A stretch of 64,000 nt of DNA from Rhodospirillum sp. GTDB taxonomy: Bacteria; Pseudomonadota; Alphaproteobacteria; Rhodospirillales; Rhodospirillaceae. A program made the translations under genes and the position numbers. The notes under the pieces were generated by a model. The model was not told the origin of the DNA. It searched no databases and saw only the letters and a program-made list of their open reading frames with translations. The stretch spans positions 100,170 to 164,169 of the forward strand of contig JAIOYK010000002.1 in NCBI GenBank assembly GCA_021741145.1, written 5' to 3'. Below are positions 307 through 49,019 of the stretch, in pieces (the stretch's first letter is position 1; every line of letters begins with the position of its first letter).

Positions 307-1458
<1,152 letters not shown>

Positions 1459-1513
1459 CTACTGTCTCGGGAAGGGATGGACAAGCCGGGAACTGGCCCG
1501 CCGGTTCATCCTC

Positions 1514-2464
1514 CTATACCTTCATGCGGGCCGCTGGAATGCGGTTGTCGGCTTCCAGCAATTGGTCCACCAACTTGCCCCAGCTGAAGCTCTCCGCGGC
1601 GACCTTGCCCGCCTCGGCGATACGGGCAAGCACGTTCGGATCCGTCGGCAGGTCCTCGAGCTGGTTGATGTCCAGCACCGTCTCCATGTGCTTGTACACT
1701 GGGGGCGAGTTTTCATCGAGGTTGGTGATAACCACCGCGCCGGCGCTCAAGGCCGTGTGCAGGCTGGTGTTGTTGGCCCGCACGCCCTTGGGGAAGAAGG
1801 CCGCGAAAAAGGTCGTGGTCTGGAGATAGTGGTTCACCGCGGTGTCGGAGATGAACCCCAGGAAGTGGACGGGGCCGTCGTAATTGGAGCGGATCCCCTT
1901 CACCGCGCCGGTGAAGGCGCTTTCGATGGCCGTGCCCTCGTGCAGGGCGGTCGACAGGTACAGGGAGTGGCTTTTTCCCGTCTTGTTCAGCAGGGCTTCC
2001 AGTGCGCGGTAGTTGTCGCCGCGCACCTTGTGGGCCATGCCGAAGGTGAAGACGGAGATATCCGTCGGCGTAAAATCGTCCACGTCGAACAGGACGCCCG
2101 GGCACCAGCTTTCCACCACGTCCGGGCAAATGGGTTTCAGGCGGTTGGCCAACTCCACATTGCCCACGTAGACGATGTCGGATTCCGCGATCAACTTGTG
2201 CTCGATGGGGGTGTCATCATAGGCGTGCAGGAACAGACGCAGGGACTGGGTGGCGGGACGGTCGTCCAGGAAGCGCTCCAGGTCCCGGGCATGGGCCTTG
2301 GTGAACTCGCTGATCTTGATCGACAGCAAGGGGCGGCTCATGCGCGCCACCGATGGGTCGAACAGGGACAGGTGGGGAACGGCCAGTTCCTCGGCGAGCG
2401 CCTGATTGAACTTGGCGATGCCGCAGGACAGCGGATTCAAGTGATAGCCGACGATGCAATCCAT
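1514..2464 (-). CDS. putative divergent GT-B-fold glycosyltransferase-like protein
   Basis: 316-aa soluble ORF in the glycan operon. The C-terminal FFAAFFPKGVRANNTSLHTALSAGAVVITN resembles the GT4-type donor-binding region but lacks the usual EX7E glutamates. I could not assign a family by eye. Confidence 0.45.
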   Translation of the reverse strand: MDCIVGYHLNPLSCGIAKFNQALAEELAVPHLSLFDPSVARMSRPLLSIKISEFTKAHARDLERFLDDRPATQSLRLFLHAYDDTPIEHKLIAESDIVYVGNVELANRLKPICPDVVESWCPGVLFDVDDFTPTDISVFTFGMAHKVRGDNYRALEALLNKTGKSHSLYLSTALHEGTAIESAFTGAVKGIRSNYDGPVHFLGFISDTAVNHYLQTTTFFAAFFPKGVRANNTSLHTALSAGAVVITNLDENSPPVYKHMETVLDINQLEDLPTDPNVLARIAEAGKVAAESFSWGKLVDQLLEADNRIPAARMKV

Positions 2465-2534
2465 GGGAAGAGTCCGGTTCGTCCGTGTCGTGGAAATGGG
2501 GAAACAGTCGGGCGGGTTTTCCCGCCCGGACCGG

Positions 2535-3713
2535 TTACAGGACGGGCTTGGCCTTTTCGTAGACCAGCACGCGACCGACGTTGCGCCAATCCATCTTGGC
2601 TTCCAGATCCGGACGGCGCTTGAAGCCCTGTAGGTTGAACATCAGGCGCAGCATATCCTTGTTCATGCAGTTGATATGCGTCGGATCCACATGGAATTCC
2701 GTGGTCACGTCGAACAGGGACCGAGGCTCCGGATGGAAGCGGGTGGTGACGTAGATGTATTTGTTGGAAATTCGGCAGAGGTTCTCCACGGCCTTTTGAA
2801 CCTGCAGCACGGTCAGGTGCTCGAACACCTCGCGGCAGATGATCAGGTCGTAGGCGTTCGCGGGCAGGTCGATGTCGATGATGGAGCCGATCTTGATCTT
2901 GTCGGCCACTTCCTTGGGAGCGATGTCCTTCGACGCCTGGGAGAAATCGACGCCATCGGCATCCACGCCCACTTCCTGGAGCAAGTACATCAAGGCACCA
3001 GGGCCGCAGCCCATGTCGATGGCCTTGGTGGGCTTGAAGGTGTCCGCGATCAGCCGTGGGTTTTTTCCTTCGATGGGGCGTCGTGCCTCGACAGTGTAGC
3101 TGTTGTTTTCGGCTCTCCAGGTATCGTTGAAGTACTCTTCCGAGTAATCGTCCGCGTTGGTTTGTTCCTGAGTCAACAGGAACGTCTCGAAATCCTCGAG
3201 GTCGCCGGGCATTCCGGAGTTGCGGAGGAAGGATTTCAGCAGGTCCGAGGAGCTGTCCAGGACCGTATCCAAATAGACGATCTCAATCCCGAACTCCTGG
3301 CATGCGGCGACCTCGCCCGCGGGAAGGCCTCGGCTTTCCCAATCCTTGCCCTTCACGTAATATTTAGGCTTGAGGTGGCGCAGGACATCCTCGGTCGTTT
3401 TTCCGTTGATGTGCGTATAGGTCACGGGCTTTAGGGCGTCGATGACCTGGGCGCGCTTTTCCTGCGCCAGGAACGGGGGGTGCTTGCTTTTTACATAACC
3501 ATCGCCCGTGATGCTCACCAGCAACGGAACACCGAGTTTCGCGGCCTCCGTGAAATAAGCCGTATGGCCGTGATGCAAGGGGTCGAATCCGCCATCAACC
3601 ATGGCGACGCCTCCCTGATACCCAGGTAGGTCCTCGAAATTCAAAAGCATGCGACGCATCCGAAACTGTGGTATGAGCCGGTCCTTATAACGGAATGTCT
3701 TGGGTCCCGCCAC
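2535..3713 (-). CDS. bifunctional-looking cytidylyl/adenylyltransferase (HxGH family) fused to a class I SAM-dependent methyltransferase
   Basis: The N-terminal VAMVDGGFDPLHHGHTAYF carries an HxGH nucleotidyltransferase signature of the TagD/RfaE-domain-II type. The C-terminal half has AIDMGCGPGALMYLL (SAM motif I) and DLIICREVFEHL. Alternative starts lie at 3659 and 3650 (MRRM). Confidence 0.75.
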   Translation of the reverse strand: MAGPKTFRYKDRLIPQFRMRRMLLNFEDLPGYQGGVAMVDGGFDPLHHGHTAYFTEAAKLGVPLLVSITGDGYVKSKHPPFLAQEKRAQVIDALKPVTYTHINGKTTEDVLRHLKPKYYVKGKDWESRGLPAGEVAACQEFGIEIVYLDTVLDSSSDLLKSFLRNSGMPGDLEDFETFLLTQEQTNADDYSEEYFNDTWRAENNSYTVEARRPIEGKNPRLIADTFKPTKAIDMGCGPGALMYLLQEVGVDADGVDFSQASKDIAPKEVADKIKIGSIIDIDLPANAYDLIICREVFEHLTVLQVQKAVENLCRISNKYIYVTTRFHPEPRSLFDVTTEFHVDPTHINCMNKDMLRLMFNLQGFKRRPDLEAKMDWRNVGRVLVYEKAKPVL

Positions 3714-3745
3714 ACACTTAAGCGGTGGGGTTCTAATCTTTCGTC

Positions 3746-5092
3746 ATGGCGGAATCCGATCCTCTCGATCGGAAACCTTTGTATTTGGTGGGTGGCGTGA
3801 TGGGGACGATGGGCCGGATGGAACGCGCGATCAGAACGTCATTGGTCCGTCTGGCCTTGACCCGCGCGGCTCCCGACGAGGCCCTGGCCGTCGCGCGGCG
3901 TGGTCTGGATGCCGCCCTGAGCAAGAAGGTCCGACCGCGGCGTCTGTGGGAGCACCTGACCGAAACCCTCCGCCAGGGTCTGCTTGCCTCGCCCCCCGAG
4001 CGTCGGGCCGCGCTGCTGGCGGGCGCGGTGGAGGAGGCCGTACCCGGCTTCGAAGGGGACCGGGAGAGCCTTTACAGTCTTTACCGGCGGCTCGTTGACT
4101 TGGGCACGGCTCCCACGTCCCTGGAGCCCGCGCCCACCCAGTTCGAGGTGAGGGCTGGGGCGGGGGACACCCTGGTCGTTGGTCCTTGGACCATGGAAGT
4201 CGGTTTTGAATTGCTATACTGGATCCCGTTTCTGCGCGCCAAGCTGGCGGAATCTGGTCCGGGCACCGATCGGATCACCGCCGTTGGGCGGGGCATCGCC
4301 CCCAGCTGGTACGAAGGGATCGCCGACAATACCGTCGACATCCTTGATCATTGGACTCCAGAAACCTTTCGGGACCGTGTGGAAGCCCAGGTCCGAAACG
4401 GCGGTCTGCGGAAGCCCTTCGGCATGGGAGACTTGGAACGGGATCTTTTGACCGATATTCTGGGATCCCCACCGGAGGATGGGACCTATGAGCTGATCGC
4501 CCCACCCACCCTATTCGCCCGTTTTCGGAATGTCTGGGGAAGCCGTATCGCCGGTCCCGGGGTTATCGAACACCTTCGGTTCGCGTCGGTAACCCCCCCC
4601 CCGCCGCCAGTTGGTCTGCCATCGGAGCCCTTTTTGACGGCGAAACTCTACTTTTCCGAAGCGTTCCCGGACACGGAGCGGAATCGGGCTTTCCTGCGGG
4701 ATGTCCTGGATGGCGCGCGGAGCGAAATGCCTGTTGTGCTCCTCGGTCTGCCCGACCGGTTGGACGATCACCAGTCCTTCCGCCTTGATGCTCCCGGTCT
4801 CATCGATGGGACTGTTTTCTATGGCAGCAAGGGAAATCTGGAGGTTCAAACCGCCATTGTGGGGGCGTCCCGAGGGTTGATCTCCGTCTACGGCGGTTTC
4901 ACCTATCTGGGGGGGCTATTGGGAAAGCCGGGACTGGCATTGGTGGATGATGCCTCCGAAGTCAATCCGGTCCATTTTGCCGTGGAGCATGCCATGCTTT
5001 CGGCCCTTGGGGCCCCCGGCCGGATCCTGCTTCCACCCGGCACCGGGGGTGGGGGCGTGGCCGGGGCCTTCGCGGTTGGGGTCAAAGAGTGA
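3746..5092 (+). CDS. uncharacterised protein; last ~300 aa paralogous to the C-terminal half of ORF 52713-55283
   Basis: 448-aa ORF. Shared blocks with the other copy are VVGPWTMEVGFELLYWIPFLR / IIGPWMSEVGFEILYWIPLVR, SWYEGI / RWYEGI, FSEAFPDTERNRAFLRDVL / YSRETFADTNENRDFVRGVL and NLEVQTAIVGASRGLISVYGGFTYLGGLLGKPGLAL / NLDVQTRIIAKSRGFIGTYGGLSYIAPLVGRPAFAF. Confidence 0.6.
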   Translation: MAESDPLDRKPLYLVGGVMGTMGRMERAIRTSLVRLALTRAAPDEALAVARRGLDAALSKKVRPRRLWEHLTETLRQGLLASPPERRAALLAGAVEEAVPGFEGDRESLYSLYRRLVDLGTAPTSLEPAPTQFEVRAGAGDTLVVGPWTMEVGFELLYWIPFLRAKLAESGPGTDRITAVGRGIAPSWYEGIADNTVDILDHWTPETFRDRVEAQVRNGGLRKPFGMGDLERDLLTDILGSPPEDGTYELIAPPTLFARFRNVWGSRIAGPGVIEHLRFASVTPPPPPVGLPSEPFLTAKLYFSEAFPDTERNRAFLRDVLDGARSEMPVVLLGLPDRLDDHQSFRLDAPGLIDGTVFYGSKGNLEVQTAIVGASRGLISVYGGFTYLGGLLGKPGLALVDDASEVNPVHFAVEHAMLSALGAPGRILLPPGTGGGGVAGAFAVGVKE

Positions 5093-5292
5093 CGAAGAGG
5101 AAGCGCGGGGTCCCAAGGAACGGTGGGAGGGGTTGAACGGCTTCCCCTTTCGTGGAAATCCCAAAAGACGTCGTGTTTGATATGTGGGACAACCGCTCCG
5201 CTGGCGAGTCCATGGTCCCTGCTGGTGGGCGTGACGGTAATAATGGATCTTCTTCGTTCTGGACGAAGAAAGCAACTAGGGTAGGATACGTG

Positions 5293-6435
5293 ATGCTGAC
5301 CTCCGCTCGGATTCTTTCTCTTATCGAAGAGAAAAGAAGTTCCCAACAGTACAGGAATTATCTGACTGTCCGTGACGCGGTTCTGAAGATGCGGGAGGTA
5401 CCGCTGGAGCGCATTCCGGAAACCGCGCTCCCCAGCGCCTATTGGACAGAAGAACTGTCACGTTTTCTGTATATGTTCGACGCGTCGCCCCTTGTCATCG
5501 ATCAATTGCGTCACCACACCTATCATATTACGGGTATCCAGGTTTATGGCTATCGGACGGGCGCCAGTTCCGCGCCCCTATTCGCCGAGAAACTGGAAGC
5601 CTTGAAGCGATTGGATGAGACGGGTTTGTTCGTTCCCGAGGCGGAGAACCTGGGGGGCTTTGGCCATTTAATCGATGGCCAACTCGTCAATATTGATACG
5701 CTGAAATATTATGAATCGATGGTCGCGATGGGGCGTGGTGGCGCGCTGGAGGCTTTTGGTGGTGAGATGCGCCGGACGGTCATGGAGATCGGTTCGGGAT
5801 GGGGCGGTCTGGCCCATGTGTTCAAGAGGCTGTTCCCCAACACGACTTACATTTGCGTCGATCTGGCCGAATTGTTCCTGTTTTCAGCCACCTATCTGAT
5901 GTCCGTGTTCCCCGAGGCGAAGGTTGCCTTCCTGGACGCGGACGGCAATGGGGTGGAAGGGGCTTGGTCGGATTACGACTTCATCTTCGTGCCCAATACA
6001 CTAGCGCATGAGATCAAGGGGGAGTCCCTGGACCTGTGCATGAACACGGTGTCCTTCCAGGAGATGACCACGGCGCAAGTGACGGAGTATGTCGCCCTTG
6101 CCGACCGACTGGGTGCCCCCCTTCTGTATAGTCTCAACAGGAAGCGGTCGGTCTATTCGACCGAACTGACCGATGTGCACGAAATCATCGGCGAACGCTA
6201 CGATACCACCGAAATTCCAATGCTGCCCGTTCCCTATACGAAGATGATGGATAGTCTTCGTAAGAAGGAAAAGGTGAAAGAAAAGAAGGAAAAGGGTGAT
6301 AAGAAAGAAAAGGTAAAGTTTGAAGTTGATAAGGGCGGTCTCTCTCTGGAAAAATCCGCTATCTCCGCCGCTAAAGCCGAAAAGGAAAGCATGAACTATA
6401 AGCACGTTGTCGGTCGACGCAAAATTGTAAGCTGA
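5293..6435 (+). CDS. class I SAM-dependent methyltransferase (sugar O-methyltransferase-like) with Lys/Glu-rich C-terminal tail
   Basis: VMEIGSGWGGLAHVF is a glycine-rich SAM motif I, followed by ICVDLAE and a later NTVSFQEM block. The start is moved to the ATG at 5293, which has AGGA 6 nt upstream. The gene is visibly lower in G+C than its flanks. Confidence 0.7.
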   Translation: MLTSARILSLIEEKRSSQQYRNYLTVRDAVLKMREVPLERIPETALPSAYWTEELSRFLYMFDASPLVIDQLRHHTYHITGIQVYGYRTGASSAPLFAEKLEALKRLDETGLFVPEAENLGGFGHLIDGQLVNIDTLKYYESMVAMGRGGALEAFGGEMRRTVMEIGSGWGGLAHVFKRLFPNTTYICVDLAELFLFSATYLMSVFPEAKVAFLDADGNGVEGAWSDYDFIFVPNTLAHEIKGESLDLCMNTVSFQEMTTAQVTEYVALADRLGAPLLYSLNRKRSVYSTELTDVHEIIGERYDTTEIPMLPVPYTKMMDSLRKKEKVKEKKEKGDKKEKVKFEVDKGGLSLEKSAISAAKAEKESMNYKHVVGRRKIVS

Positions 6436-7030
6436 GAATGGATTGGGTCAAGAATAGAGGAGACTCTGGTCGGATCGAATCCATTCGCGATGAATTTGCC
6501 GCCGTTCGGGGCGAGCGGCTTTCCGAGTACGAGAGATGCTCGGCTTCGCCGCTCGACGGCCGAGGGAGCTGAACTTGGATGGCAAGATGGGCGCGGCCCG
6601 TGGGCGAGCGTTCAGGGGATCGCTTGGCCTCGGCACGATGGCTCCCGGGACAGGACTTGGGAAACCAAGGTGGGACACCGATTGACCCGTGCAGTCCGAA
6701 GAAGGACGCAAGAACCTGCCCCCGCCAAGGCAGGAACACCCCTGCTCGGACGTCATGGAGGCAAGGCGTATGGGCGAGAAGGCGCTTAGCACGGTCTTCC
6801 GGAGAGCCTAAATCCCCGGGATTTCCATGGTGAATAGCCTGGACCTGGACTCTGGTCCCGGATCCGGGACCCGAACGGAGTGTGCTGGGCGGTCGCGCGC
6901 GGGCGTGAATGGTGAACCCGGATGCCGGGTTATACCAAGGTGCATGGGTCGAAACCCAAGCCCCTTGTATCACGTTCAAACGCCATACGGGCTTAACGCG
7001 CCATGGGGCGCGGGGCCGGTCAGCCGCTTC

Positions 7031-7063
7031 CAGCCCGCGATGAGTCACGCTCATCGCGGGCTG
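7031..7063. terminator. GC-rich hairpin directly after the stop of the KdsC-like gene
   Basis: CAGCCCGCGATGAG-n5-CTCATCGCGGGCTG forms a 14-bp stem and ends 4 nt from the TAA at 7067-7069. No clear U-tract follows on either strand, so it is terminator-like only. Confidence 0.4.
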
Positions 7064-7066
7064 GTA

Positions 7067-7606
7067 TTAGCCGGATTGGGGTTCCGTCTCCCTCACCCGC
7101 GCGAGACTATCACAAACCTCGCGAACGGCGCCCCGTCCCCCAAGCCATTGGGTCACGTAGCGAGCATATTCCATCACGTCGGGATGACCATCCCGGACGA
7201 CAATGGGCAGGCCTACGGCGCGCAGGCAATCCAAGTCATTAATGTCATTGCCCACGTAGGCCACGGCTTCCAGGCCGATGTTTCGTTCGGCGCAGAGGGT
7301 CTTCAGGGCGGGCAACTTGTTCTCGACCCCCTGGGTCGCTTGAATCTTGAGCTTGGCGGCCCGGGCGGCCACCACCGGATTGACCTCGGTGGAAAGGATC
7401 ATGCATTCGATGCCGGTCTTGGTGACGCGGCGCAGCCCATATCCATCCAGGCGCGAGCAGGTGACCGCTTCGCGGCCATCCTCGAACACATGGACGGTAT
7501 TGGCGGTAAAGACACCATCGAAATCGAAGACCAAAAGCCGCAGCCCTCGGATCCGGGCAATCAGGTCCGGATCCGAGGGTGGCGTGACGGGAGTCAGAAC
7601 CGTCAT
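7067..7606 (-). CDS. HAD-superfamily KdsC-type phosphatase (candidate KDN-9-P / Neu5Ac-9-P phosphatase)
   Basis: LLVFDFDGVFT (DxDG motif I), ILSTE (motif II) and VGNDINDLDCL (motif IV) follow the KdsC layout. The start is set to the ATG at 7606 (MTVL), 8 nt downstream of the synthase stop. Confidence 0.8.
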   Translation of the reverse strand: MTVLTPVTPPSDPDLIARIRGLRLLVFDFDGVFTANTVHVFEDGREAVTCSRLDGYGLRRVTKTGIECMILSTEVNPVVAARAAKLKIQATQGVENKLPALKTLCAERNIGLEAVAYVGNDINDLDCLRAVGLPIVVRDGHPDVMEYARYVTQWLGGRGAVREVCDSLARVRETEPQSG

Positions 7607-7613
7607 GGACCGA

Positions 7614-8693
7614 TCAGGACTTCGCCAGATCGACCGGGGCGGTCTCGCCAACGAGTTCGAAGGTCAGGTCTCCGTCCTTCTTCACCGCCGCATTGATGGT
7701 CTTGCCCAGGAAGTCCTCGAAGTAGTAGGGGGGCACGCCATCATTGGGCACTTTGAAGGTGATATCCTCGGCGGTCAGGACATGACCCGCCGGCAGGTCC
7801 CGGTTGGCCACCAGCTTCTTGGCCATCTTGAACAGCGGCTTCTTCTCACTTTCGAAGCACCGCTTGACGCCATCGCCGATGGCGATGCGGGTGCGCTCCA
7901 AGTCACGGACGACCTTCTTCAGGCCAGGGGGTTCAAGAGAGAAGGCCTGGTCCGTCCCCTTCCAGGCGCGGTTCAGGGTGAAGTGCTTTTCGAAAACCCG
8001 CGCGCCGAACATGTAGCCGACGATGGGCATGGCCACGCCGCTGTCGTGACTGGAGAAACCGATCACGATGTCCGGGAAGGCGTTGAAATAGGTCTCGATG
8101 ACCTTCAGGTTCAACTCCTCGTGCTCGGGCGGATAGCCGGAGGTGCACTGCATGATGCAGAGGTTTTGGTTGATCGGCATGATGGCGTCATAAGCACGCT
8201 GGGCATCGGCCATGGTGCCGCCACCGGTGGACACGATCATTGGCTTGCCGAAGCTGGCCACATATTTCAACAGCGGCGTGTTGGTCAGGTCGCCCGAGGC
8301 GATCTTGTAGCCGGAGATGTCGATGTCTTCCAGGAAGTCCGCGGATGGGTGATCGAAGGCGGTGGAGAAAAACAGGACGCCCAGTTCCTCGGCGTACTTC
8401 TTCAGCTCCAGATACTCGTCCCGTCCGAATTCCAGGAACTCGCGGTGCGCGCCGTAGGTGGGGGCGTAGGCGTTCTCGGAGTTGTAAGGGCTATTGTACA
8501 TTTCCTCGGTGAAGAGAGCGCGGTTGTCGCGCTTCTGCAGCTTCACCGCATCGGCGCCCACTTCGGCCGCGGCCTTGAACAAGGCCTTGCACTTTTCCAG
8601 ATCGCCCTGGTGGTTGTGGCCGATTTCGGCGATCACGTAACTGGGGCTGTCCTGGGTGACAACCTTATTGCCAATCTTGAACTCACGCGCCAT
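7614..8693 (-). CDS. neuB: nonulosonic acid synthase of the NeuB family, animal-NANS-like (probable 9-phosphate-forming)
   Basis: IAEIGHNHQGDLEKCK, TYGAHREFLEFGRDEYLELKKYAEELGVLFF, CIMQCTSGYPPEHEELNLKVI, IGFSSHDSG and FEKHFTLNRAWKGTDQAFSLEP. A C-terminal SAF-like domain is present. The blocks resemble human NANS as I recall it more than E. coli NeuB. Confidence 0.9.
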   Translation of the reverse strand: MAREFKIGNKVVTQDSPSYVIAEIGHNHQGDLEKCKALFKAAAEVGADAVKLQKRDNRALFTEEMYNSPYNSENAYAPTYGAHREFLEFGRDEYLELKKYAEELGVLFFSTAFDHPSADFLEDIDISGYKIASGDLTNTPLLKYVASFGKPMIVSTGGGTMADAQRAYDAIMPINQNLCIMQCTSGYPPEHEELNLKVIETYFNAFPDIVIGFSSHDSGVAMPIVGYMFGARVFEKHFTLNRAWKGTDQAFSLEPPGLKKVVRDLERTRIAIGDGVKRCFESEKKPLFKMAKKLVANRDLPAGHVLTAEDITFKVPNDGVPPYYFEDFLGKTINAAVKKDGDLTFELVGETAPVDLAKS

Positions 8694-9167: not shown

Positions 9168-10157
9168 TCATCCCCCGTATAGGGCGAAGCGAAACCGTCG
9201 TCCCCAAAGGAGTTTTCCGAGCCCGCCGTGGAGGTTGGCCAGGTGTCCCGCGGCCCGATGTCCCCCCAGGGGGAGGGTCAGCAGCCAACCCAAGCCATGA
9301 ACCGCGACCTGGGCGGCTCCCACGGCCATCCACTTGAGAACTTCTCCTCCGTTGTGCCGCCCCAGGCGGGTACAGGCCAAGACCCGGATCTGGCCATCCC
9401 GAAAGCGGCGCTTGCGCAGGTAGGCGAGCGTGCAACGGTCCGCGGGGACGGACTCGGACACCAGGGCGTCCGCCGCCCAGGCCAGGCGCGCGCCCTGTGT
9501 CACCAGTCGACGCAACAGCACGCTGTCCTCGCCCCCCACCTTGCCCAGGTCGACGTCGAAAGGGAGGGAGGGGAGGGGGGCGGTTTCCCGGTCGAACAGG
9601 CTGTTCTGGGTTCCCATCGAAGCCACCAATGGGGTGATGTCCTCGCCGGTCTCGAGGCCCAGGACCCGGGAGAAATAGGCCATGAAGAGAGGCCGGAGCG
9701 GGTCGTCCTCGGCGCAGTGGAGGTTGGGGGTGACCGGTCCGAAGACCGCTCCGGCGCGACTGTCTCGCGCGGTCTTCCACAGGGCGGCGAGCCAGCCATG
9801 GATCGGGCATTGGTCATCGTCCAGGAACACCAGATAGCGCCCCCGGGCCATGGCCACCGCGGTATTGCGGGCATGGCTGATGCCTGGACGGGGCTCATGG
9901 AAGGCGTGGAGGATTGGCCCGGTCCACCCCTCCTTGACGGCGTCCAGGACGGGTCGGGCGGAGGCGTCCGGATCGTTGTCCACGACCAGGATTTCCACAT
10001 GGGTGAAATCCACATCCCTCTGTTCGGCGCAGGCCCGCAAGGCGCGGCGCAACAAGTCCGGGCGTTTGTAAGTGGGGATGAGGATGCTAACCTCGATCTC
10101 CGTGGGCGGAATCGCTCGAGGCGGAACGACCTTGGGTCCGTCGATGTGCGGTGTCAT
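9168..10157 (-). CDS. family 2 glycosyltransferase (GT-A fold)
   Basis: VSILIPTYKRPDLL, ILVVDNDPD, the FLDDDQ (DxD) motif, GGEDSVLL, and a hydrophobic C-terminal segment. The start is set to the ATG at 10157, which overlaps the upstream TGA (ATGA). Confidence 0.85.
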   Translation of the reverse strand: MTPHIDGPKVVPPRAIPPTEIEVSILIPTYKRPDLLRRALRACAEQRDVDFTHVEILVVDNDPDASARPVLDAVKEGWTGPILHAFHEPRPGISHARNTAVAMARGRYLVFLDDDQCPIHGWLAALWKTARDSRAGAVFGPVTPNLHCAEDDPLRPLFMAYFSRVLGLETGEDITPLVASMGTQNSLFDRETAPLPSLPFDVDLGKVGGEDSVLLRRLVTQGARLAWAADALVSESVPADRCTLAYLRKRRFRDGQIRVLACTRLGRHNGGEVLKWMAVGAAQVAVHGLGWLLTLPLGGHRAAGHLANLHGGLGKLLWGRRFRFALYGG

Positions 10158-11557
10158 TGGGGCGTGGAGTCCTCGCCAAGAATGCTGAACCATGTCTTCG
10201 CGACCTCCATGGCCGGTTTGCCCGCCACGTCGAAGTCATCGACATTCGGAATTTGGTCAACGCCCTTGTAAGGTTCCGGATCCCAGTCCCAAAAGAATAT
10301 TCCCTCCAGCCAGTCGGCCCGCACTTCGGTCATGGCGGTGAAGACGGCCTCGTAAAGCAGGGCCTGTTCGGCCAGATCGACGGTCACCTCCCGGGCGCTG
10401 TCCCCCAGGCCGGTGCCTCCCCCATCGATGGAGCGGTAGCCGATTTCCGTGAACAGGATTTTCTTGTCCTCATGGATCGACAAGCGGCGCATGGCCTCGG
10501 TGATGGGGAGGCCGCTCCAGACCTCGGCGGTGACGCTGTTGGTGGGATCCCGGTTCCATCCCGCTACCGCTTCCGCCAGAGTCGGGTCGTTGCCCTTGGT
10601 GATGGGGGCGTACATGTCCACGCCGATGTAGTCCAGGGCGTCCCAGAAGGGCACCTGCAATTCCTCTCCCCAGTTGGCCGAATAGGTCAGCTTGCCCGGG
10701 TAAACGGCCCGCACGGCGGCGATCACCTTCAACCAGCGGTCCCGGTTGGCGGGCCGGGTCAAACCCACCAACTCTCCGGTCAGGGACATCAACTCCACCC
10801 CTTCCTCCGCGGCCATGGTTGCGTAGTGGACCATCACCGTTTCGAAATCGGCGAAGAAGGTATCCAGTTCATCGGGTACAATGAGCTGGTGGGGGCCGAA
10901 ATCCTCCAGATGGACTTGGGGCTTGAGCATCACGATCAGACCGAGGTCCTTGGCCTTTCGGATCATCGTACGGACATTTTCGTCCGTTTCCGTCTGCTGG
11001 TTCCGGAAGATGCGGGAGGCGTGGATGTCCTTGATGTATTGGGTGGGCACTATGGCCACGGCGTTGGCATTGCTTTCGGCCAATTCCGTCAAGGCGGTGA
11101 TCGCCTTGTCTGAGCCGAAGATCCCCTTCCACCAGGATCCCATATTGAACCCCATGTATCGGGGCGCGAAAGGGCCGGGGGGGTTGGTCGTGCCAGGAAT
11201 GGGGGCGAGGCGGGCCAGATCCTTCTCGATGGTTTGGTGGGCCTCGTCCTTGTTGACCACCATGCCCCAGGTGATCTGGCCCCGGGCCGGAATGATCCCG
11301 GTCCCGGCCTCGGGCTGGACGCGAAGGGACCCGGGACGCGCGCCCTCGCTCACCATGGCGCCCCAGCTTCTCGAAACGGTCCATCCCTTGGGTAGGTAGA
11401 GGGTCAAGGACCAATTCGCGGCGCCGTCCTTGCCCGGCGCCGTGACGGTCACCTCGCCCCAATACCCATTGCCCCATTGCTCCTTCATCTCGAATTCGGC
11501 GAGGACTTGGGGGTTGGGTCCAAAGAGCGGAAGGGCGTCGAGGAGGGCCGCGTCCAT
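10154..11557 (-). CDS. putative glycanase: CBM2-like beta-sandwich plus TIM-barrel clan GH-A-like hydrolase
   Basis: The N-terminal WGNGYWGEVTVT...ANWSLTLYLPKGW...ITWGMVV is a carbohydrate-binding-module-like Trp pattern. The C-terminal part has NAVAIVP, VMLKPQVH and ILFTEIGYRS (candidate nucleophile Glu). The start is set at MDAALL (11557). No signal peptide is visible. Confidence 0.6.
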   Translation of the reverse strand: MDAALLDALPLFGPNPQVLAEFEMKEQWGNGYWGEVTVTAPGKDGAANWSLTLYLPKGWTVSRSWGAMVSEGARPGSLRVQPEAGTGIIPARGQITWGMVVNKDEAHQTIEKDLARLAPIPGTTNPPGPFAPRYMGFNMGSWWKGIFGSDKAITALTELAESNANAVAIVPTQYIKDIHASRIFRNQQTETDENVRTMIRKAKDLGLIVMLKPQVHLEDFGPHQLIVPDELDTFFADFETVMVHYATMAAEEGVELMSLTGELVGLTRPANRDRWLKVIAAVRAVYPGKLTYSANWGEELQVPFWDALDYIGVDMYAPITKGNDPTLAEAVAGWNRDPTNSVTAEVWSGLPITEAMRRLSIHEDKKILFTEIGYRSIDGGGTGLGDSAREVTVDLAEQALLYEAVFTAMTEVRADWLEGIFFWDWDPEPYKGVDQIPNVDDFDVAGKPAMEVAKTWFSILGEDSTPQ

Positions 11558-11725
11558 CGGTGTCGTTTCCCTAGAGTAATCCGAGATCACGTTGGACCGC
11601 GTCGTGCTAAAAGGACGCCTTTGGCGTGACGCGGACCAACTTGGCCTCGACGATACTCCAAAGTCTATATTAACGAGAGTGAAACTGGGCCAGCATGACC
11701 CAAGCTGATCAAGTTTCACTCTTGT

Positions 11726-13837
11726 TCAGGTGCTGTCGCCCGCGCGGTTGAGCACCGCGCCCACCAGCCTGGAGCGCAGGCCACGCAGGACGCGCAGGGA
11801 TCCGGTGACCTGGGCCTGGCGGGTCCGGCCCGTGTCGAGCACCATCAGGATCTTGTCGCTGATCCCCGCCCAGGCGGTGGCGTCGGCGCTTTCCAAAAGA
11901 CCCGGGCTGTCGATCAACACGGCGTCGTATTTCTCGCGCAGGGCCTGAGCTAGTCCGCGCATCTGCAGGTCATGTAGGCGCATGGTCGCCCCCTGCATGG
12001 GACCCATGGGCAAGAGGTGAAGGGGCGAGGTGGGATCTTTCTGGATCGCCCGCTCCAAATCGGCGCCATCACGGACCATGTCCACCAGTCCGAAGTCATT
12101 GGCGCACCCCGTGGCCCGGTGCAGGGTGGGCGTCGTCCTGTCACCGTCGACCACGAGTGTCCGCAATCCGGCTTCCAGGGCCAGCGCGCGACCGATGGAG
12201 ACGGCCATGGTGGTCTTGCCCTCGCCGCTGTCCGGCGCGGTCACCAGGATGATCCCTGGCTTTTCCGAACTGTCCGGCGGCGCGAGGGAAAGGTGCAGGG
12301 CGCGGATGGAGTCGCTGAAGGGAGAGGTCGGCTTGTCGACGATATACAGCTGGGGAGGCAGGGCGGCCACTTGTTCCGCGGACAGGCGCGGTGTCAGGGT
12401 CAAGACCGGCGCGCGGAGCCAGGCCTCCGCCTGTTCCAGGGTCATCAGGCGGGTATCGGTCTGCTCCATCCACAGCACCAGGAGGAGGGCGACGAACAGC
12501 GCCGCCATGCCTCCTCCGGCGACGATCATTTTGCGCTTGGGCGCGGCCCGGACTTCCGGGGGGATGGCCGATGAGACCACCCTGCCGTCGGCCCGTTCCG
12601 TCCCCCGGACCTCCTGAACCTGGGCCAGCCGGTTCAGGAAATCCTCCAGGATGCGCCGCGCGGAATCCGCGTCCCGTTCCATGGCCCGCAGGTCCACCTG
12701 GGCGTCGCTTAGCTGTCTTTCCTCGCCCTTTAGGGTGGCCAAGGCGGCCTCCAGAGAGGAAACCCGCGCCTGGAGACTTTCCACGGAGAGCCGCAATTCG
12801 GCGCGGATGGAGCGGGTTTCGTTCCGCATCTGCTCCGTCAGGGCGCGGACCACGTCCTGGGCCGCCGTGATGGCCCGGTGGCCGGGTTGGTATCGGGCCA
12901 TGGCCGCGGCCAGATTGGCCATGGCCATGGCTTTCTGCTGACGCAGGGCGCCCATGATTTCCGTGTTGGCCGCGGCGGTGGGGATGTCGGCGTCGGCGCT
13001 GGAAAGAACCCGCTCGATTTCCGTGAACTGCGCCTTGATGGAGGCGAGGTCGGCCCGGGCCTCCGTCAGGCTTTGGTTCAGGGTGGCGATCTGGTCGCTG
13101 ACCGCTTGCAGACCGGCCCCTTCCACCAATCCTGCGCTGCTTCGGAAGGCAGCCACCTTCTCCTCCCGGGCCGTGACGTTCTTGCGCAATTCAGTGATGC
13201 GCTCCGACAGGGCCGCGATCAGGGTTTCGTTTTCCTGGATCTTTTCGTCCACCTGTCGTTCCAGGTAGGCATGGACCGCGGCATTGGCGATATCCGCGGC
13301 CTCTTGTGGGGTGGAGGCGGTGGCCGATACATCGATGATCTTGGACCGGCCAACGGGGGAGACAAAAAGGCCGCCCCGCAGATTTTCCGTCACCCGGGTC
13401 ATCATGGTTTCCCGCGTGGCGACACCGGTGGCCTTGGGGTCGGGCTTCCAGCCGAGTTCCGGGTTTAGTTTGGGGTCGTAGAGCAGTCCCATGTTTTCGA
13501 TAACCCGCTCGGTCACGGCACGGGAGCGGATGATCTGGGTTTCGCTTTCGAGAAGAATATCATTGCCGAAGGGGTTGCTGTCGCCGCCTCCCTGGTCCAG
13601 CAGGGTTCGCCCTTCGTCGCGGACCAGGACCGAGGCGATGGCGATGTATTTTGATGGCAGGGTCAAGGAATAGGCGGCGGAAGCGAGCACGCCCACCGTG
13701 ACGACGGCCAGGATGAGCCAGCGGTTACGGATCAGGGCCTGTAGGGCGGCCTTGATGTCGGTCATCAGATCGTGGCCGCCCGGACCCCCATGGGGGCCGT
13801 CCCCCATCGGGCCATAGCCCAGTTGGGTCGTGGACAT
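11726..13837 (-). CDS. polysaccharide co-polymerase with C-terminal BY-kinase-type P-loop ATPase (Wzc/GumC/ExoP-like, PCP-2a)
   Basis: TM helix WLILAVVTVGVLASAAYSL, a long coiled-coil periplasmic region and a second TM helix. The ATPase has Walker A VTAPDSGEGKTT, Walker A-prime LVVDGD and Walker B VLIDSPG. Only the C-terminal ~703 aa of the 1174-aa track ORF is used. The start is ambiguous among 13837, 13807 and 13765. Confidence 0.85.
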   Translation of the reverse strand: MSTTQLGYGPMGDGPHGGPGGHDLMTDIKAALQALIRNRWLILAVVTVGVLASAAYSLTLPSKYIAIASVLVRDEGRTLLDQGGGDSNPFGNDILLESETQIIRSRAVTERVIENMGLLYDPKLNPELGWKPDPKATGVATRETMMTRVTENLRGGLFVSPVGRSKIIDVSATASTPQEAADIANAAVHAYLERQVDEKIQENETLIAALSERITELRKNVTAREEKVAAFRSSAGLVEGAGLQAVSDQIATLNQSLTEARADLASIKAQFTEIERVLSSADADIPTAAANTEIMGALRQQKAMAMANLAAAMARYQPGHRAITAAQDVVRALTEQMRNETRSIRAELRLSVESLQARVSSLEAALATLKGEERQLSDAQVDLRAMERDADSARRILEDFLNRLAQVQEVRGTERADGRVVSSAIPPEVRAAPKRKMIVAGGGMAALFVALLLVLWMEQTDTRLMTLEQAEAWLRAPVLTLTPRLSAEQVAALPPQLYIVDKPTSPFSDSIRALHLSLAPPDSSEKPGIILVTAPDSGEGKTTMAVSIGRALALEAGLRTLVVDGDRTTPTLHRATGCANDFGLVDMVRDGADLERAIQKDPTSPLHLLPMGPMQGATMRLHDLQMRGLAQALREKYDAVLIDSPGLLESADATAWAGISDKILMVLDTGRTRQAQVTGSLRVLRGLRSRLVGAVLNRAGDST

Positions 13838-14203
13838 GGCCGAGGATTGGGATATGGCGGGTAAGGGAGAGATCACGACCGCGCGCTCCACGGCAAGTCG
13901 GTGGAACAACTGGTCTTGGGAGTCCAGATGGGGCGGCGATCGGCACGGTGCGTCGTCATGGATCCCGTTATTTCCCTGGAATTCTTTGGTACGCTTCCGA
14001 CATCTTAGCGTATGACGTCGCGGCATGCACGGCCAAGGATGGCTTTTCACCTTGCCATCCAATTGAGATAGCATGATTCTGTCGCCGGACAAATGGATCG
14101 ATACTCCCTTCCCCGTGGCCAAGGTGGCCCCTTCGTCAAGGCCTGGAGAGGGGGTGAATGTCAACGCTGACCCGGGGTTCCACCCCGCGGGAGTCTCCTG
14201 ACC

Positions 14204-15463
14204 ATGAACGCACCAGCGCGGGGATCGGATGATGGGCTGGAAGAGACCGGCGGGGCCAAAGGGCAGGCCTCGGCCAATGGGTCTCCCTCCAGAGGGGGCA
14301 TAACCGAGGATCGGATCCCCTACGCGCCGGAACACCCCACCGGGGACGGGGCCAAGGGGTCCGGCGCGGGCGCGCAACGGCGGCACGAACGGGTCACCGC
14401 CCCCCTGGATATCATTTTCCAGCGGAAGATCTATAAGGCCAAGGACTGGTCCATGACCGGTTTCGCCCTCGAGCCGGATGCGTTCGACCTGCCCGTGGGC
14501 CAGCGCTTCCGGTTCCACGCCCGTTTCCACCTGCGGGGCGCCCAGATGGCCGCCGAATTCCAGGCGGAAGTCGCCCGCCGTACCAGCGAGCGGACGGGAT
14601 GCCGGTTCGTTGAGACGACCCCCGACCAGATCCAGGTTCTGCGCATGCTGCTCGCCGCCTATCGATCGGGTCGGGTGCCCGCGTGGGAAGCCATGATGGC
14701 CATGGACGAGGACGGTCCTCTGAGGGGGGCCCCCCGCCGGGCCGTGACCCCCACGGGCGAGGATCGGTTCGAGGACGCCGACGCGGGCGAGCAGCGCGCC
14801 GGAGGGCGCCTGTCCTGGCGTCCCTCTGTTCGAATGATCTATGGAATCCTTGCCATCGTGGCGTTGGTGGCGGTCACCCTGGTCGGAATCACCCGCCTGT
14901 CCCATGACCTGGAAAGCGCCTTCGCCGCGGTGTCCCTGCCCGGGGGGCAAACCCTGGCCGCGGATCGGGAGGGCATCGTCGCCGAGGTTCTGGCCGCGCC
15001 CGGTGATCTCGTCGGCGCGCGGACCCTGGTCTTGCGGCTGACACCCACGGGCGCGGAAGCGAGTGACCCGGTACCGGTTCTGAGCCCCTGTGCCTGTTCG
15101 GTGCTTTCCCTGGCCGTTTCCCCCGGGGATAGGGTGGCGCTGGGGGATCCCCTGATGTCCCTGGGGCCGATCAATGGCGCCAAGGACGGCCTTTTCGTCG
15201 AAGCCCTGTTCCCCATGGAGGATCTGGAGGACCTGCCGTCTGGAACCCAATTGGAGGTACGGTTGGCTGGGACGAACCGTCTGGTCCCTGGTCGGGTGGT
15301 CACGCTCGAGGCGTCCCTCTCGGCCCTGCCCGCCGTCCTGGTGGAGCGGGGAGGGTTGGGGGTCGTGCAGGTGCGCCTAGACCAGGCGCCGGAGGGTTTA
15401 TACAACGGCCAGCCGGCCCGGGTCCGACTGCGCCGGTCGCCCCTGGTGCTCTTGGGGCTGTGA
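14204..15463 (+). CDS. Alg44-like protein: PilZ (c-di-GMP-binding) domain, one TM helix, periplasmic HlyD/membrane-fusion-like domain
   Basis: RRHER (aa 59-63) and DWSMTG (aa 81-86) fit the PilZ RxxxR...DxSxxG signature. The TM helix is MIYGILAIVALVAVTLVGITRL. Lipoyl-like halves GIVAEVLAAPGDLV and CSVLSLAVSPGDRVALGDPL are followed by a beta-barrel-like tail. Confidence 0.8.
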   Translation: MNAPARGSDDGLEETGGAKGQASANGSPSRGGITEDRIPYAPEHPTGDGAKGSGAGAQRRHERVTAPLDIIFQRKIYKAKDWSMTGFALEPDAFDLPVGQRFRFHARFHLRGAQMAAEFQAEVARRTSERTGCRFVETTPDQIQVLRMLLAAYRSGRVPAWEAMMAMDEDGPLRGAPRRAVTPTGEDRFEDADAGEQRAGGRLSWRPSVRMIYGILAIVALVAVTLVGITRLSHDLESAFAAVSLPGGQTLAADREGIVAEVLAAPGDLVGARTLVLRLTPTGAEASDPVPVLSPCACSVLSLAVSPGDRVALGDPLMSLGPINGAKDGLFVEALFPMEDLEDLPSGTQLEVRLAGTNRLVPGRVVTLEASLSALPAVLVERGGLGVVQVRLDQAPEGLYNGQPARVRLRRSPLVLLGL

Positions 15464-17992: not shown

Positions 17993-19097
17993 AGGAGAAC
18001 GATCCCGAGAAGCCTTGGAAAAAGAGGATTTGGCGCAGCACCTGATCCATCAGGCGACCGGCCTGGGCCAGCTTGGAGGGCGGCACGTAGACGATGGCGT
18101 TGTCCGGCAGGGTGATGTCCTCCTCCAACGCCAGATTGGTCAGAACATTGGACAGGTTGACCCGTCGGAGATGGGGCTGACCCTGGTCGTCCACGTAGAG
18201 TACCCGCACATTGGTCAGGTTGCCCGTCGTTTCGATGCCTCCGGCCCGGGCGATGCTCATCAAAACGGTTTGGGGACGGTTGGTTTCCACCATGCCAGGG
18301 TTCCGGACCTCGCCGAACACGAAAAGGCGGTCGCCGCCGGTCTGCTTGGGCAGGATGCTGACGTCGATGTTCAGACCCGATCTGGCGTAGGCGGTGCTCA
18401 CCTCCTCCGTCAGCTTGTCCAAGGTCTTGTCCGTGGCTTGGATGGGCGACAAGTAGGGGAGCGCCAACATACCGTCGGAGGTGACGGGGACGACCTTTGC
18501 CCGGCCCTGGGTGATGGATTCAATGTCTTGGATAAACCGATCCTCGGGCAGGATCCAGCCTTCCAGGGATACGGACGGGTTACTATTCTGGAAAACCTCG
18601 CCGTACTTGGCGCGAACCGCGGCGTTCAGGGAGCGAACGTCCCGGCCCGCGGCCATCACTTCGCCCGTTTCCGGCAGGCTGATCCACCCGTCCGGGCGGA
18701 CTTTCGCCGTGGTATTCAAGGCGGTATCGCCGGGGAAAGTGATCGCGACCTGATCCCCCACCTGCAGGTCATAGGTCTTCACCGTGGTGGGACGGGCGTG
18801 GAACAGGACTTCCAACTGGTCGCCGATGCGCGGCGTGTATTGGGCGCGGCCCCGTTGGAGACTCTTGACCAGGGTTTGGCGCATGACCTCCTTTTCCGCA
18901 TCGGAGAATTCGGAGATATAGACGGGATCCTCTCCGGTTGTCTGGTCAAAGGTTGGGCCACCACAGGCCGATAACAGCACCATCAACCCCAGCAGGCCAA
19001 ACAGCACAAGGCCAAGACCGAGTCGGTCATTTCGCGACCGGTTGTTTCGTGGAGACCGCTTTCCTTCGTCCCCAATCAAACGTCTCAAGGTCCGCAT
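17964..19097 (-). CDS. outer-membrane polysaccharide export lipoprotein (Wza/GumB/ExoF family)
   Basis: Lipobox LLSAC after a hydrophobic signal. Poly_export-like PRIGDQLEVLF..., repeated SLBB-like segments (VFGEVRNPG, VRVLY) and a hydrophobic C-terminus. The start is trimmed to MRTLRRL at 19097. Confidence 0.85.
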   Translation of the reverse strand: MRTLRRLIGDEGKRSPRNNRSRNDRLGLGLVLFGLLGLMVLLSACGGPTFDQTTGEDPVYISEFSDAEKEVMRQTLVKSLQRGRAQYTPRIGDQLEVLFHARPTTVKTYDLQVGDQVAITFPGDTALNTTAKVRPDGWISLPETGEVMAAGRDVRSLNAAVRAKYGEVFQNSNPSVSLEGWILPEDRFIQDIESITQGRAKVVPVTSDGMLALPYLSPIQATDKTLDKLTEEVSTAYARSGLNIDVSILPKQTGGDRLFVFGEVRNPGMVETNRPQTVLMSIARAGGIETTGNLTNVRVLYVDDQGQPHLRRVNLSNVLTNLALEEDITLPDNAIVYVPPSKLAQAGRLMDQVLRQILFFQGFSGSFSYELFRQNGA

Positions 19098-19242
19098 GCT
19101 TCCTCGGTTTTTCGCGGCGATGTGGTCGGGGCTGTCATCTCCTCGCGTCGCGTCACGCTTTCGTGTAGGTATCGTAAGGTATGGGGATTCGCGAAAAACA
19201 CAACCGTTACCAAGACGTGACTCTCCCTTTGGAGCAAATGGG

Positions 19243-48754: not shown

Positions 48755-49019
48755 TGGTGTCCTGGTCGGACAGTCCAGCGATTGAAGGGGAAAACCCCCT
48801 CGAAATGCTTTCCCCGATGGGCGGGATATGGTCTAACCAGGATCCAGAGTGCAAGCCGCCCCAACCGTCCAAAAAAGGTTGGGGCCAAGGCATATTTGGG
48901 ATGGACCGCCCGGGTAGGGTCCCGGACGGGGCGCGCGCGGTCGTTGCCGGTCCCTTGCGATCCGACCGTTCATACTGTTCAGAGAAAGCCCCCGTGCCGT
49001 GAAGCCCGAATCGCCACGT

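Follow-up and report, generated by a model that had tools for sequence, protein, structure and literature searches.

What does a domain that matches no annotated family do when it occurs twice in one stretch of DNA? This question is raised by 64,000 nucleotides from Rhodospirillum sp. (GenBank assembly GCA_021741145.1, contig JAIOYK010000002.1, positions 100,170 to 164,169 of the forward strand), hereafter the window. Two open reading frames (ORFs) on its plus strand share a repeated domain of ~300 amino acids, the GPWxxEVGFE domain, called FAM below: ORF A (3746-5092, 448 aa) is a standalone member of the family, while ORF B (52713-55283, 856 aa) is a fusion predicted to hold two modules of the glycosyltransferase (GT) fold GT-B. 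The best explanation is that FAM is probably the catalytic domain in a family of GT-B transferases not annotated so far, with a donor-binding half like that of the heptosyltransferase family GT9, which would obtain its donor from a neighboring nucleotidyltransferase (NT) and work with a partner module in building a heteropolysaccharide.

A repeated domain outside annotated families

FAM spans about residues 140-430 of ORF A (4163-5035, plus strand) and about residues 540-840 of ORF B (54330-55232, plus strand). The sequence-only reading had pointed to collinear motif blocks common to ORF A and the C-terminal part of ORF B, and every one of them is present: GPW(T/M)(M/S)EVGFE(L/I)LYWIP can be found at 146-161 of ORF A and 547-562 of ORF B, and both ORFs harbor the further blocks (S/R)WYEGI, F(S/Y)(E/R)xFxDTxxNRxFxRxVL and NL(E/D)VQTxIxxSRGxIxxYGGxxY. 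In a pairwise BLASTP comparison, residues 143-422 of ORF A and 544-836 of ORF B form one collinear alignment with 29% identity, 46% positives, 13 gap positions and E = 4e-41. At the sequence level the repeat is confirmed as real, far above chance level, and the two copies are old paralogues rather than products of a recent duplication, since they are only 29% identical.

The NCBI record of an identical protein (MCF8479059, "hypothetical protein K9H25_01380," from a Rhodospirillum sp. metagenome-assembled genome) starts at Met25 of ORF A, i.e., at nucleotide 3818 rather than at the ORF start at 3746. Residues 1-136 of ORF A constitute a variable N-terminal extension, which is coiled-coil-like in many relatives.

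Regarding sequence families, the domain shared by ORF A and ORF B has no Pfam-A or NCBIfam match, even at E <= 1, and nothing emerged at E <= 10 when profiles of 20 and of 112 members were run against PDB sequences. Scanned singly against Pfam, 112 diverse relatives yielded no significant family, and 41 fusion proteins yielded none for FAM. Among the 112 relatives, the sole recurrent glycosyltransferase signal was PF01075 (GT9), below threshold in three (best E = 0.0035); one of the 41 fusions also matched it below threshold (E = 0.0084). The other weak Pfam matches among the 112 are coiled-coil noise of the variable N-terminal extensions. All source names checked, including those of 10 clusters, read "hypothetical protein," and a search of the literature on GT9-like or heptosyltransferase-like families found nothing relevant. 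The earlier claim that the domain lies outside any annotated sequence family holds in these Pfam, NCBIfam and PDB sequence searches for the window copies and for the 112 or 41 relatives. No search placed it confidently in a characterized glycosyltransferase family, the link to GT9 being at the level of fold and remote homology only.

Predicted fold and conserved residues

An AlphaFold2 model of residues 137-448 of ORF A, generated with 20 aligned sequences, has a mean pLDDT of 91.8 and a pTM of 0.92. In the numbering used for the domain, residue n corresponds to residue n+136 of ORF A. The model comprises two beta-alpha-beta blocks, the first with strands at 7-12, 41-45, 59-62 and 113-115 and the second with strands at 161-164, 194-197, 216-218, 242-245, 260-263 and 290-293, and a terminal helix at 299-311. 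It displays what defines the GT-B fold, namely two Rossmann-like alpha/beta/alpha domains at a cleft and a C-terminal helix crossing back. The sequence-only reading had seen in the domain a fit to a single Rossmann-like half of a transferase; in the model, the ~300 residues hold both such halves of a compact GT-B enzyme.

Foldseek searches against the PDB gave 28 matches at E <= 1e-3, nearly all those listed being GT-B proteins. GT9 structures lead (3tov; WaaC 2h1f, 2gt1 and 6dfe; WaaF 1psw; TibC 4rap), together with a GT9-like subunit of the plant NDH-PSI complex, and are followed by UDP-GlcNAc 2-epimerases and GT1 enzymes. The scores are those of a common fold (E about 1e-5, best 1.6e-5; TM 0.41-0.45; 10-15% identity). 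According to the model, FAM is a complete, compact GT-B, glycosyltransferase-like enzyme.

Conservation was examined across 112 members, which are on average 25% identical. No variation was seen in eleven columns (R46, G47, W52, Y53, K87, Y166, H206, N228, Q232, G247, and H274) and about 29 further columns are conserved at >= 90%, the near-invariant residues including G10, P11, E15, G17, E19, D204, Y246, G248, and Y251. In ORF A, the N-terminal half of the domain exhibits the beta1-alpha1 loop GPWTMEVGFE (Glu151, Glu155), Arg182, Trp188/Tyr189 and Lys223, and the C-terminal half Asp340-x-His342, Asn364/Gln368, Tyr382-Gly-Gly384, Tyr387 and His410; their counterparts in ORF B include Glu552, Glu556, Asp745, His747, Tyr796-Gly-Gly798 and His824. 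In the model, the invariant polar residues lie at C-terminal strand ends and helix starts, i.e., at the cleft-facing donor and acceptor positions of a GT-B enzyme, as would be expected of a working enzyme more than of a scaffold. The earlier proposal of a conserved module for building or decorating glycans, which is very probably catalytic, is supported.

Spread of the family and modular architectures

HMMER searches of 1.84 billion cluster representatives identified 1683 FAM relatives at E <= 1e-3 and 896 at E <= 1e-30, with clusters counted at 50% identity. A scan of one genome per GTDB species found 344 relatives, spread over at least six phyla. Vicinamibacterales and other Acidobacteriota predominate, and the rest include Alphaproteobacteria (among them the cultured Tistlia consotensis), Actinomycetota, Planctomycetota, Verrucomicrobiota, Nitrospinota and Bdellovibrionaceae. 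Many relatives have 850-920 aa with a C-terminal FAM, the architecture of ORF B (~850 aa) recurring across genomes. FAM can also be found in FAM-FAM tandems, such as the 729-aa protein P0028, and fused with GT2, with a sulfotransferase, or with a Wzt-like ATP-binding cassette (ABC) ATPase. The last fusion, P0025 (locus L084, 2500-4542), consists of FAM, a Pro/Lys-rich linker and the ATPase, and could be an assembly or frameshift artefact.

Gene neighborhoods were compared in 80 loci with 10-kb flanks, namely the window, 73 loci taken from the GTDB scan and 6 obtained by looking up exact proteins. Neighboring ORFs were labeled by phmmer with seeds from Pfam-annotated examples; a single-linkage clustering of ORFs was dropped, as fusion proteins merged everything into one giant component. 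The strongest partner of FAM in these loci is the N-terminal module of ORF B, called Bnterm (52713-54152, plus strand; aa 1-480), which occurs in 36 of the 39 loci of at least 18 kb (long loci). Bnterm is fused to 54 of the 168 FAM ORFs and adjoins 42 of the 114 standalone ones, and a single locus often holds several paralogues of both FAM and Bnterm, as in L079 and L032.

The AlphaFold2 model of Bnterm (aa 1-480, pLDDT 90.7) has a GT-B fold. Its Foldseek matches, at E about 1e-11, are generic (NeuC/WecB epimerases, GT1/GT4 enzymes, and MshA), and its Pfam matches (GT4 N-domain, Epimerase_2, and Glyphos_transf) are all sub-threshold. Model and Foldseek bear out the earlier reading of the segment ahead of FAM in ORF B as a GT-B module. 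As modeled, ORF B is two complete GT-B enzymes in tandem, neither of them annotated, Bnterm representing another large GT-B family without annotation. The motifs SWDNLTNKG, RPHP (in the C-terminal half) and NTS...E are invariant in Bnterm. Bnterm can also be found as standalone proteins of 500-600 aa, with up to about eight paralogues per locus (paralogues in L003, L008, L014, L032, L072, L077, and L079). In L081 (2182-4222, Vicinamibacterales chromosome OZ252042.1), two radical-SAM/SPASM genes lie upstream of Wzt/Wzm and of a 1092-aa protein containing Bnterm.

The almost constant association of FAM with Bnterm could also be expected if FAM were a non-catalytic GT-B-like scaffold or carbohydrate-binding module aiding Bnterm or an exporter. 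The one fusion to an ABC ATPase would be consistent with such a role, although FAM is at its N-terminal end and the glycan-cap-binding domains carried by some Wzt proteins are at the C-terminal, opposite end. A scaffold would not account for the 11 invariant and the many nearly invariant polar residues that, from phylum to phylum, cluster where GT-B enzymes have their cleft; moreover, standalone FAM copies are translationally coupled to NT, and FAM-FAM tandems and FAM-GT2 fusions exist without Bnterm. A non-catalytic role is thus considered very improbable.

Relation to GT9 heptosyltransferases

A GT9 profile made from WaaC, WaaF, WaaQ and WaaU of E. coli K-12 was compared with FAM by profile-profile alignment in hhalign. 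With the 112-sequence FAM profile, 88 columns were aligned in the C-terminal (donor-binding) half only (E = 2e-4, probability 45%), while with the 20-sequence profile the probability was only 8%. In the alignment, FAM invariants fall on invariant positions of GT9, i.e., H206 on Glu222, Y246 on Asp261, G248 on Gly263 and Y251 on His266, so that the positions are kept but the residues differ except for the Gly. Of Asp13, Lys192, Glu222 and Asp261 of WaaC, which are presumably its catalytic or donor-binding residues, Glu222 is replaced by His and Asp261 by Tyr, while the region of Asp13 and Lys192 is unaligned and the Glu of the FAM beta1-alpha1 loop is only positionally analogous to the GT9 base. 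Searching all locus ORFs by phmmer with WaaC and WaaF retrieved no FAM ORF, and the PF01075 gathering threshold was reached by none of the 112 members, ORF A and ORF B having no match at E <= 1. From the sequence comparison and the model, FAM is seen as a GT-B enzyme whose donor-binding half is probably a remote relative of that of GT9, and not as a member of GT9.

That FAM could nevertheless be a true but divergent GT9 heptosyltransferase using ADP- or GDP-heptose would agree with GT9 enzymes being its top structural matches, with the HldC-like character of its NT partner and with a genuine bifunctional HldE plus GmhA beside FAM in locus L033. However, none of the other 79 loci has GmhA, GmhB or the HldE kinase domain in its 10-kb flanks, PF01075 lies above threshold in none of the 112 members, phmmer with WaaC/WaaF finds no FAM ORF, and the heptose-binding Asp261 has become an almost invariant Tyr. 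There is thus little chance that FAM is a genuine GT9 enzyme.

The nucleotidyltransferase partner and the donor

In the window, the gene divergently transcribed from ORF A (2535-3713, minus strand) encodes an HldC/RfaE-domain-II-like nucleotidyltransferase (PF01467, aa ~36-156) together with a class I S-adenosylmethionine (SAM) methyltransferase (aa ~220-365). A hidden Markov model built from five sequences, with scores mostly of 150-250 bits, detects the same PF01467 subfamily in 45 of the 80 loci and in 27 of the 39 long ones. NT overlaps or directly follows FAM on the same strand in L002, L010, L015, L024, L042, L048, L065 and L071, and is divergently transcribed from it in the window, L001, L004 and L039. 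The linkage extends over at least six phyla (Alphaproteobacteria, Acidobacteriota, Actinomycetota, Planctomycetota, Verrucomicrobiota, and Nitrospinota). In 37 loci, belonging to several phyla, a class I SAM methyltransferase is joined to NT in one protein or encoded next to it, and NT is often accompanied by a 4,6-dehydratase of GDP-mannose 4,6-dehydratase (GMD)-like type.

The window NT is closest to heptose-1-P adenylyltransferases, the kind that serves GT9 enzymes (TIGR02199 1.3e-18, below cut-off; PDB 5x9q 9e-9), with lower scores against TagD (1.9e-5; 1coz 9e-4) and ECT and further PDB matches to 3elb, 5x3d and 2b7l. Across the loci, the nucleotidyltransferase domain of E. coli HldE matches the NT partner in 45 of 45, at about 1e-12. 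The canonical ADP-heptose route was considered as a general source of donor and rejected: with E. coli K-12 seeds for GmhA, GmhB and the HldE kinase, partners could be found within the 10-kb neighborhoods in L033 only, namely GmhA and the HldE kinase domain. In L033 (12472-15588, Vicinamibacterales), a GMD-like dehydratase, the bifunctional HldE and GmhA lie directly downstream of a FAM and Bnterm pair. A pairing of FAM with HldE is possible, as this locus shows, though it is not the general source, and canonical ADP-heptose as the donor of FAM is not supported.

The window NT is part of a cassette whose other members are a GDP-mannose 4,6-dehydratase (307-1386, minus strand; TIGR01472 452 bits, above the cut-off of 415) and U316 (1514-2464, minus strand), a 316-aa protein without Pfam, NCBIfam or PDB match. 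The arrangement of GMD-like dehydratase, U316 and NT-methyltransferase facing FAM is conserved in the window, L001, L004 and L039. In L004 (CP030885.1), the slot of ORF A at this cassette is held by P0178, an ORF B orthologue with 63% identity, and in L039 by another fused protein; therefore, the standalone and fused forms fill the same functional slot. As ORF B orthologues occupy the slot of ORF A elsewhere, ORF A and ORF B, to judge from their sequences, probably use the same donor. U316 homologues are present in 22 of the 80 loci, almost always beside the nucleotidyltransferase/methyltransferase pair, with the invariant motifs FGMAHK, SxAxHE, FLGxLSD and GxRANNT...TNLDxxSP. The last of these motifs looks like part of the C-terminal half of a GT4 enzyme, yet this identity was discarded, hhalign giving E = 0.14 against WaaG/WaaB and E = 0.08 against FAM, neither of which is significant.

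The nature of NT leaves room for another chemistry, in which FAM would be a phosphotransferase similar to TagF or to the transferases of O-methyl phosphoramidate (MeOPN). It would take a substituent linked through phosphate (glycerol phosphate, a methylated phospho-alcohol, or a methyl-phosphate-type cap) from a CDP donor to the glycan and might thereby terminate chains whose synthesis depends on an ABC transporter. PF01467 is also the family of TagD, ECT and the CyTase domain of Fom1 (PDB 3elb, 5x3d, 2b7l, 1coz), a methyltransferase is fused to NT or lies next to it, genes for APH-type kinases are found on the flanks of FAM in L002, L033 and L065, and Wzm/Wzt genes occur in 17 of the 80 loci besides the one FAM-Wzt-like ATPase fusion; the invariant H206 and H274 of FAM also recall what are presumably the two catalytic His of TagF. 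However, NT scores far better against heptose-1-P adenylyltransferases (1.3e-18; 5x9q 9e-9) than against TagD (1.9e-5; 1coz 9e-4), and no TagF chain appears among the top 50 Foldseek matches of either FAM or Bnterm. FAM itself has no PF04464 match, the weak PF04464 matches in three of the 41 fusion proteins being unmapped to a module within the fusion. Genes for the MeOPN glutamine kinase and amidotransferase were not seen in the annotated neighborhoods, and the occurrence of multiple FAM paralogues per locus suits chain building better than capping. With regard to MeOPN (Cj1415-1422), a literature search yielded no usable fold or sequence information for Cj1421/22, and the analogy is a weak one. 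A phosphotransferase activity of FAM is thus regarded as unlikely.

Ulosonic acid genes

Besides NT and Bnterm, the neighbors among the 80 loci include NeuB (35 loci), CTP_transf_3 (32), GT2 (27), NanM-type sugar O-methyltransferase (18) and Wzm (17), and short-chain dehydrogenases/reductases, transketolase and aldehyde dehydrogenase are also frequent. In the long loci, NeuB occurs in 23 and CTP_transf_3 in 19 of 39. The window itself harbors a NeuB-family ulosonic-acid synthase gene (7614-8693, minus strand) and a HAD (Hydrolase_3) phosphatase-like gene (7067-7651, minus strand), both 2-3.5 kb from ORF A; the latter would be in keeping with a phosphorylated-ulosonate route. CTP_transf_3 was not detected near NeuB of the window.

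These genes suggest that FAM might be a transferase of CMP-activated ulosonic acids, either sialic-acid-like or 3-deoxy-D-manno-octulosonic acid (Kdo)-like, whose donor would come from NeuB and CTP_transf_3 and not from the HldC-like NT. CTP_transf_3 is immediately upstream of FAM in 16 of the 114 standalone cases, and the order NeuB, NeuC-like epimerase, methyltransferase, CTP_transf_3, FAM, FAM is recurrent. About half of the loci, though, have neither NeuB nor CTP_transf_3 within 10 kb, and no structure of a sialyl- or Kdo-transferase (GT80, GT52, GT38, GT99, GT107, KpsC) can be found in the top 50 Foldseek matches of FAM. In GT-B sialyl and Kdo transferases, the HP motif lies in the C-terminal, nucleotide-binding half, whereas the near-invariant H116-P117 of FAM sits in the N-terminal half and is Ala-Pro, without the His, in ORF A. 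For this activity Bnterm, with its invariant RPHP in the C-terminal half, is the better candidate. The RPHP motif resembles the HP motif of sialyl/Kdo transferases, and the assignment to Bnterm is a lead given by this motif resemblance only. It is accordingly doubtful that FAM itself transfers ulosonic acids, and this reading is rated no higher than the phosphotransferase.

Proposed function of FAM

The preferred reading remains that of an unannotated GT-B transferase family supplied by NT. Its C-terminal half (in ORF A, D340-x-H342, N364/Q368, Y382-G-G, Y387, and H410) would bind a nucleotide-activated donor, made by the neighboring PF01467 NT and methylated and/or 4,6-dehydrated by co-encoded enzymes, the fusion protein encoded at 2535-3713 being the proposed donor maker. 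The N-terminal half would bind the growing acceptor glycan, and the GPWxGEVGFE loop would supply a carboxylate as general base, i.e., Glu151 or Glu155 in ORF A and Glu552 or Glu556 in ORF B. The position of this loop, which is that of the catalytic Gly-Asp loop (beta1-alpha1) of GT9, would imply a direct-displacement (inverting) transfer. In the manner of the two-module polymerizing glycosyltransferases that serve ABC-transporter-dependent O-antigens and capsules, FAM and Bnterm may then alternate in extending a heteropolymer often containing a NeuB-derived ulosonic acid, which would be exported by Wzx/Wzy in this window and by Wzm/Wzt elsewhere. ORF A would be the standalone form at the donor cassette, and ORF B the fused form at a second locus.

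Several observations weigh against this proposal. The link to GT9 is weak (TM <= 0.45, 10-15% identity, and an hhalign probability of 45%, or 8% with the smaller profile). Since the N-terminal half of FAM gave no profile alignment to GT9, the assignment of the catalytic base in the model comes from fold position alone. The sugar-binding Asp261 of GT9 is replaced by an almost invariant Tyr, and therefore the donor chemistry of FAM must differ from that of GT9. About 30% of the long loci (e.g., Tistlia, L014) have no NT within 10 kb, and its product therefore cannot be the universal donor. CTP_transf_3 is even the immediate neighbor of a standalone FAM slightly more often than NT (16 against 11 of 114). 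Finally, GT-B folds also house non-glycosyl transferases, such as the TagF-type phosphotransferases, and 2-epimerases.

A wider hypothesis can be put forward tentatively. FAM and Bnterm may found two new glycosyltransferase families which, with the NT-methyltransferase and U316, would constitute a new activated-donor pathway and polymerize a class of surface polysaccharides with ulosonic acids that is common among uncultured soil bacteria of the Acidobacteriota, Alphaproteobacteria, Actinomycetota and Planctomycetota. A methylated 6-deoxy sugar linked to ADP or CDP might serve as donor, or else a group that is not a sugar. This larger picture is held with less assurance than the catalytic role of FAM itself, and the odds are somewhat against it.

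Other genes of the window

On the downstream side of ORF A, a gene starting 60 bp after its end (5152-6435, plus strand) encodes a NanM-type putative sugar O-methyltransferase (TIGR04371 107 bits, above the cut-off of 44). ORF A thus stands alone between methyltransferase genes on its two sides (2535-3713 and 5152-6435), as had been claimed from the sequence. Between the NanM-type methyltransferase and NeuB, the overlapping ORFs 6827-7696 (plus strand) and 6371-7054 (minus strand) have no family match.

The export genes of the window comprise Wzx (19042-20619), two Wzy-like genes (20623-22011 and 48999-50336), Wza, Wzz/BY-kinase and an initiating transferase of the Bac_transf family. The earlier placement of ORF B beside Wzy_C-like proteins holds, with one correction: a Wzy_C protein (48999-50336) is encoded upstream, but the intervening gene (50371-52662, plus strand) encodes an LPG_synthase_TM protein rather than another Wzy_C. 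This 764-aa protein, directly upstream of ORF B, has its LPG_synthase_TM-type membrane domain at aa 32-303, followed by ~460 residues without Pfam match. Elsewhere in the polysaccharide locus, a GH113 glycoside hydrolase with a CBM2 domain is encoded beside a 1174-aa Wzz/GNVR/tyrosine-kinase protein (10154-11719 and 11726-15250, both on the minus strand); the latter is unusually long, its first ~490 residues being without match.

Significance and comparison with known systems

If FAM is an active transferase, a new CAZy family would be justified, and probably a second one for Bnterm. The proposal, if true, would open a first way to the function of at least 1,683 "hypothetical protein" clusters (50% identity, E <= 1e-3), located in polysaccharide loci of bacteria that are abundant in soil and freshwater but have been little studied. 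That FAM is so closely coupled to an HldC-like NT-methyltransferase points to an undescribed nucleotide-activated donor, for which 307-6435 of the window offers a short gene set. No concept is overturned, as unannotated GT-B families are to be expected in metagenomic sequence; the finding is not conceptually surprising, nor is it a new kind of system. Within a well-known class of enzymes, FAM is rather a family that is new at the sequence level and marked out by its gene partnership, and a solid candidate for a new glycosyltransferase family.

The closest known counterparts are the GT9 enzymes (PF01075; WaaC, WaaF, WaaQ, TibC), with which FAM shares a compact GT-B fold of ~320 aa, a Gly-acidic loop after beta1 and a partner nucleotidyltransferase of HldC/HldE-II type. 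The donor halves can be aligned at the hhalign probability of 45%, NLxVQTxxxAxAxxxxxTYGGxSYL in FAM corresponding to ...L.......AK.VV.VDTGL.HL in GT9. Unlike in GT9, there is no significant sequence match, Tyr, His and Tyr replace Asp261, Glu222 and His266, and FAM has motifs of its own (GPWxGEVGFELLYWIP, SRGG..WY, and DDH). Whereas GT9 enzymes act on the lipopolysaccharide core, FAM is found in exopolysaccharide or O-antigen-like loci, which lack heptose pathway genes except in L033.

Regarding the gene partnership, a small HIGH-motif PF01467 nucleotidyltransferase is encoded beside a GT-B transferase, as in the pairs of HldE domain II or HldC with GT9 and of TagD with TagF, where the transferase consumes what the nucleotidyltransferase makes. 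In contrast to both, the NT partner of FAM is joined to, or encoded beside, a SAM methyltransferase and U316, and in the loci other than L033 it lacks the kinase, isomerase and phosphatase partners of the heptose route within the 10-kb flanks.

The modular architecture has parallels in the two-module polymerizing glycosyltransferases of capsule and O-antigen pathways, such as WbdA, WbbB, NmW/Y SiaD and the TagF-like capsule polymerases. While FAM and Bnterm lie outside the families of these enzymes by sequence (GT4, GT1, GT99, GT97, and Glyphos_transf), they likewise occur in one polypeptide or in adjacent genes, near Wzm/Wzt exporters and ulosonic-acid genes.

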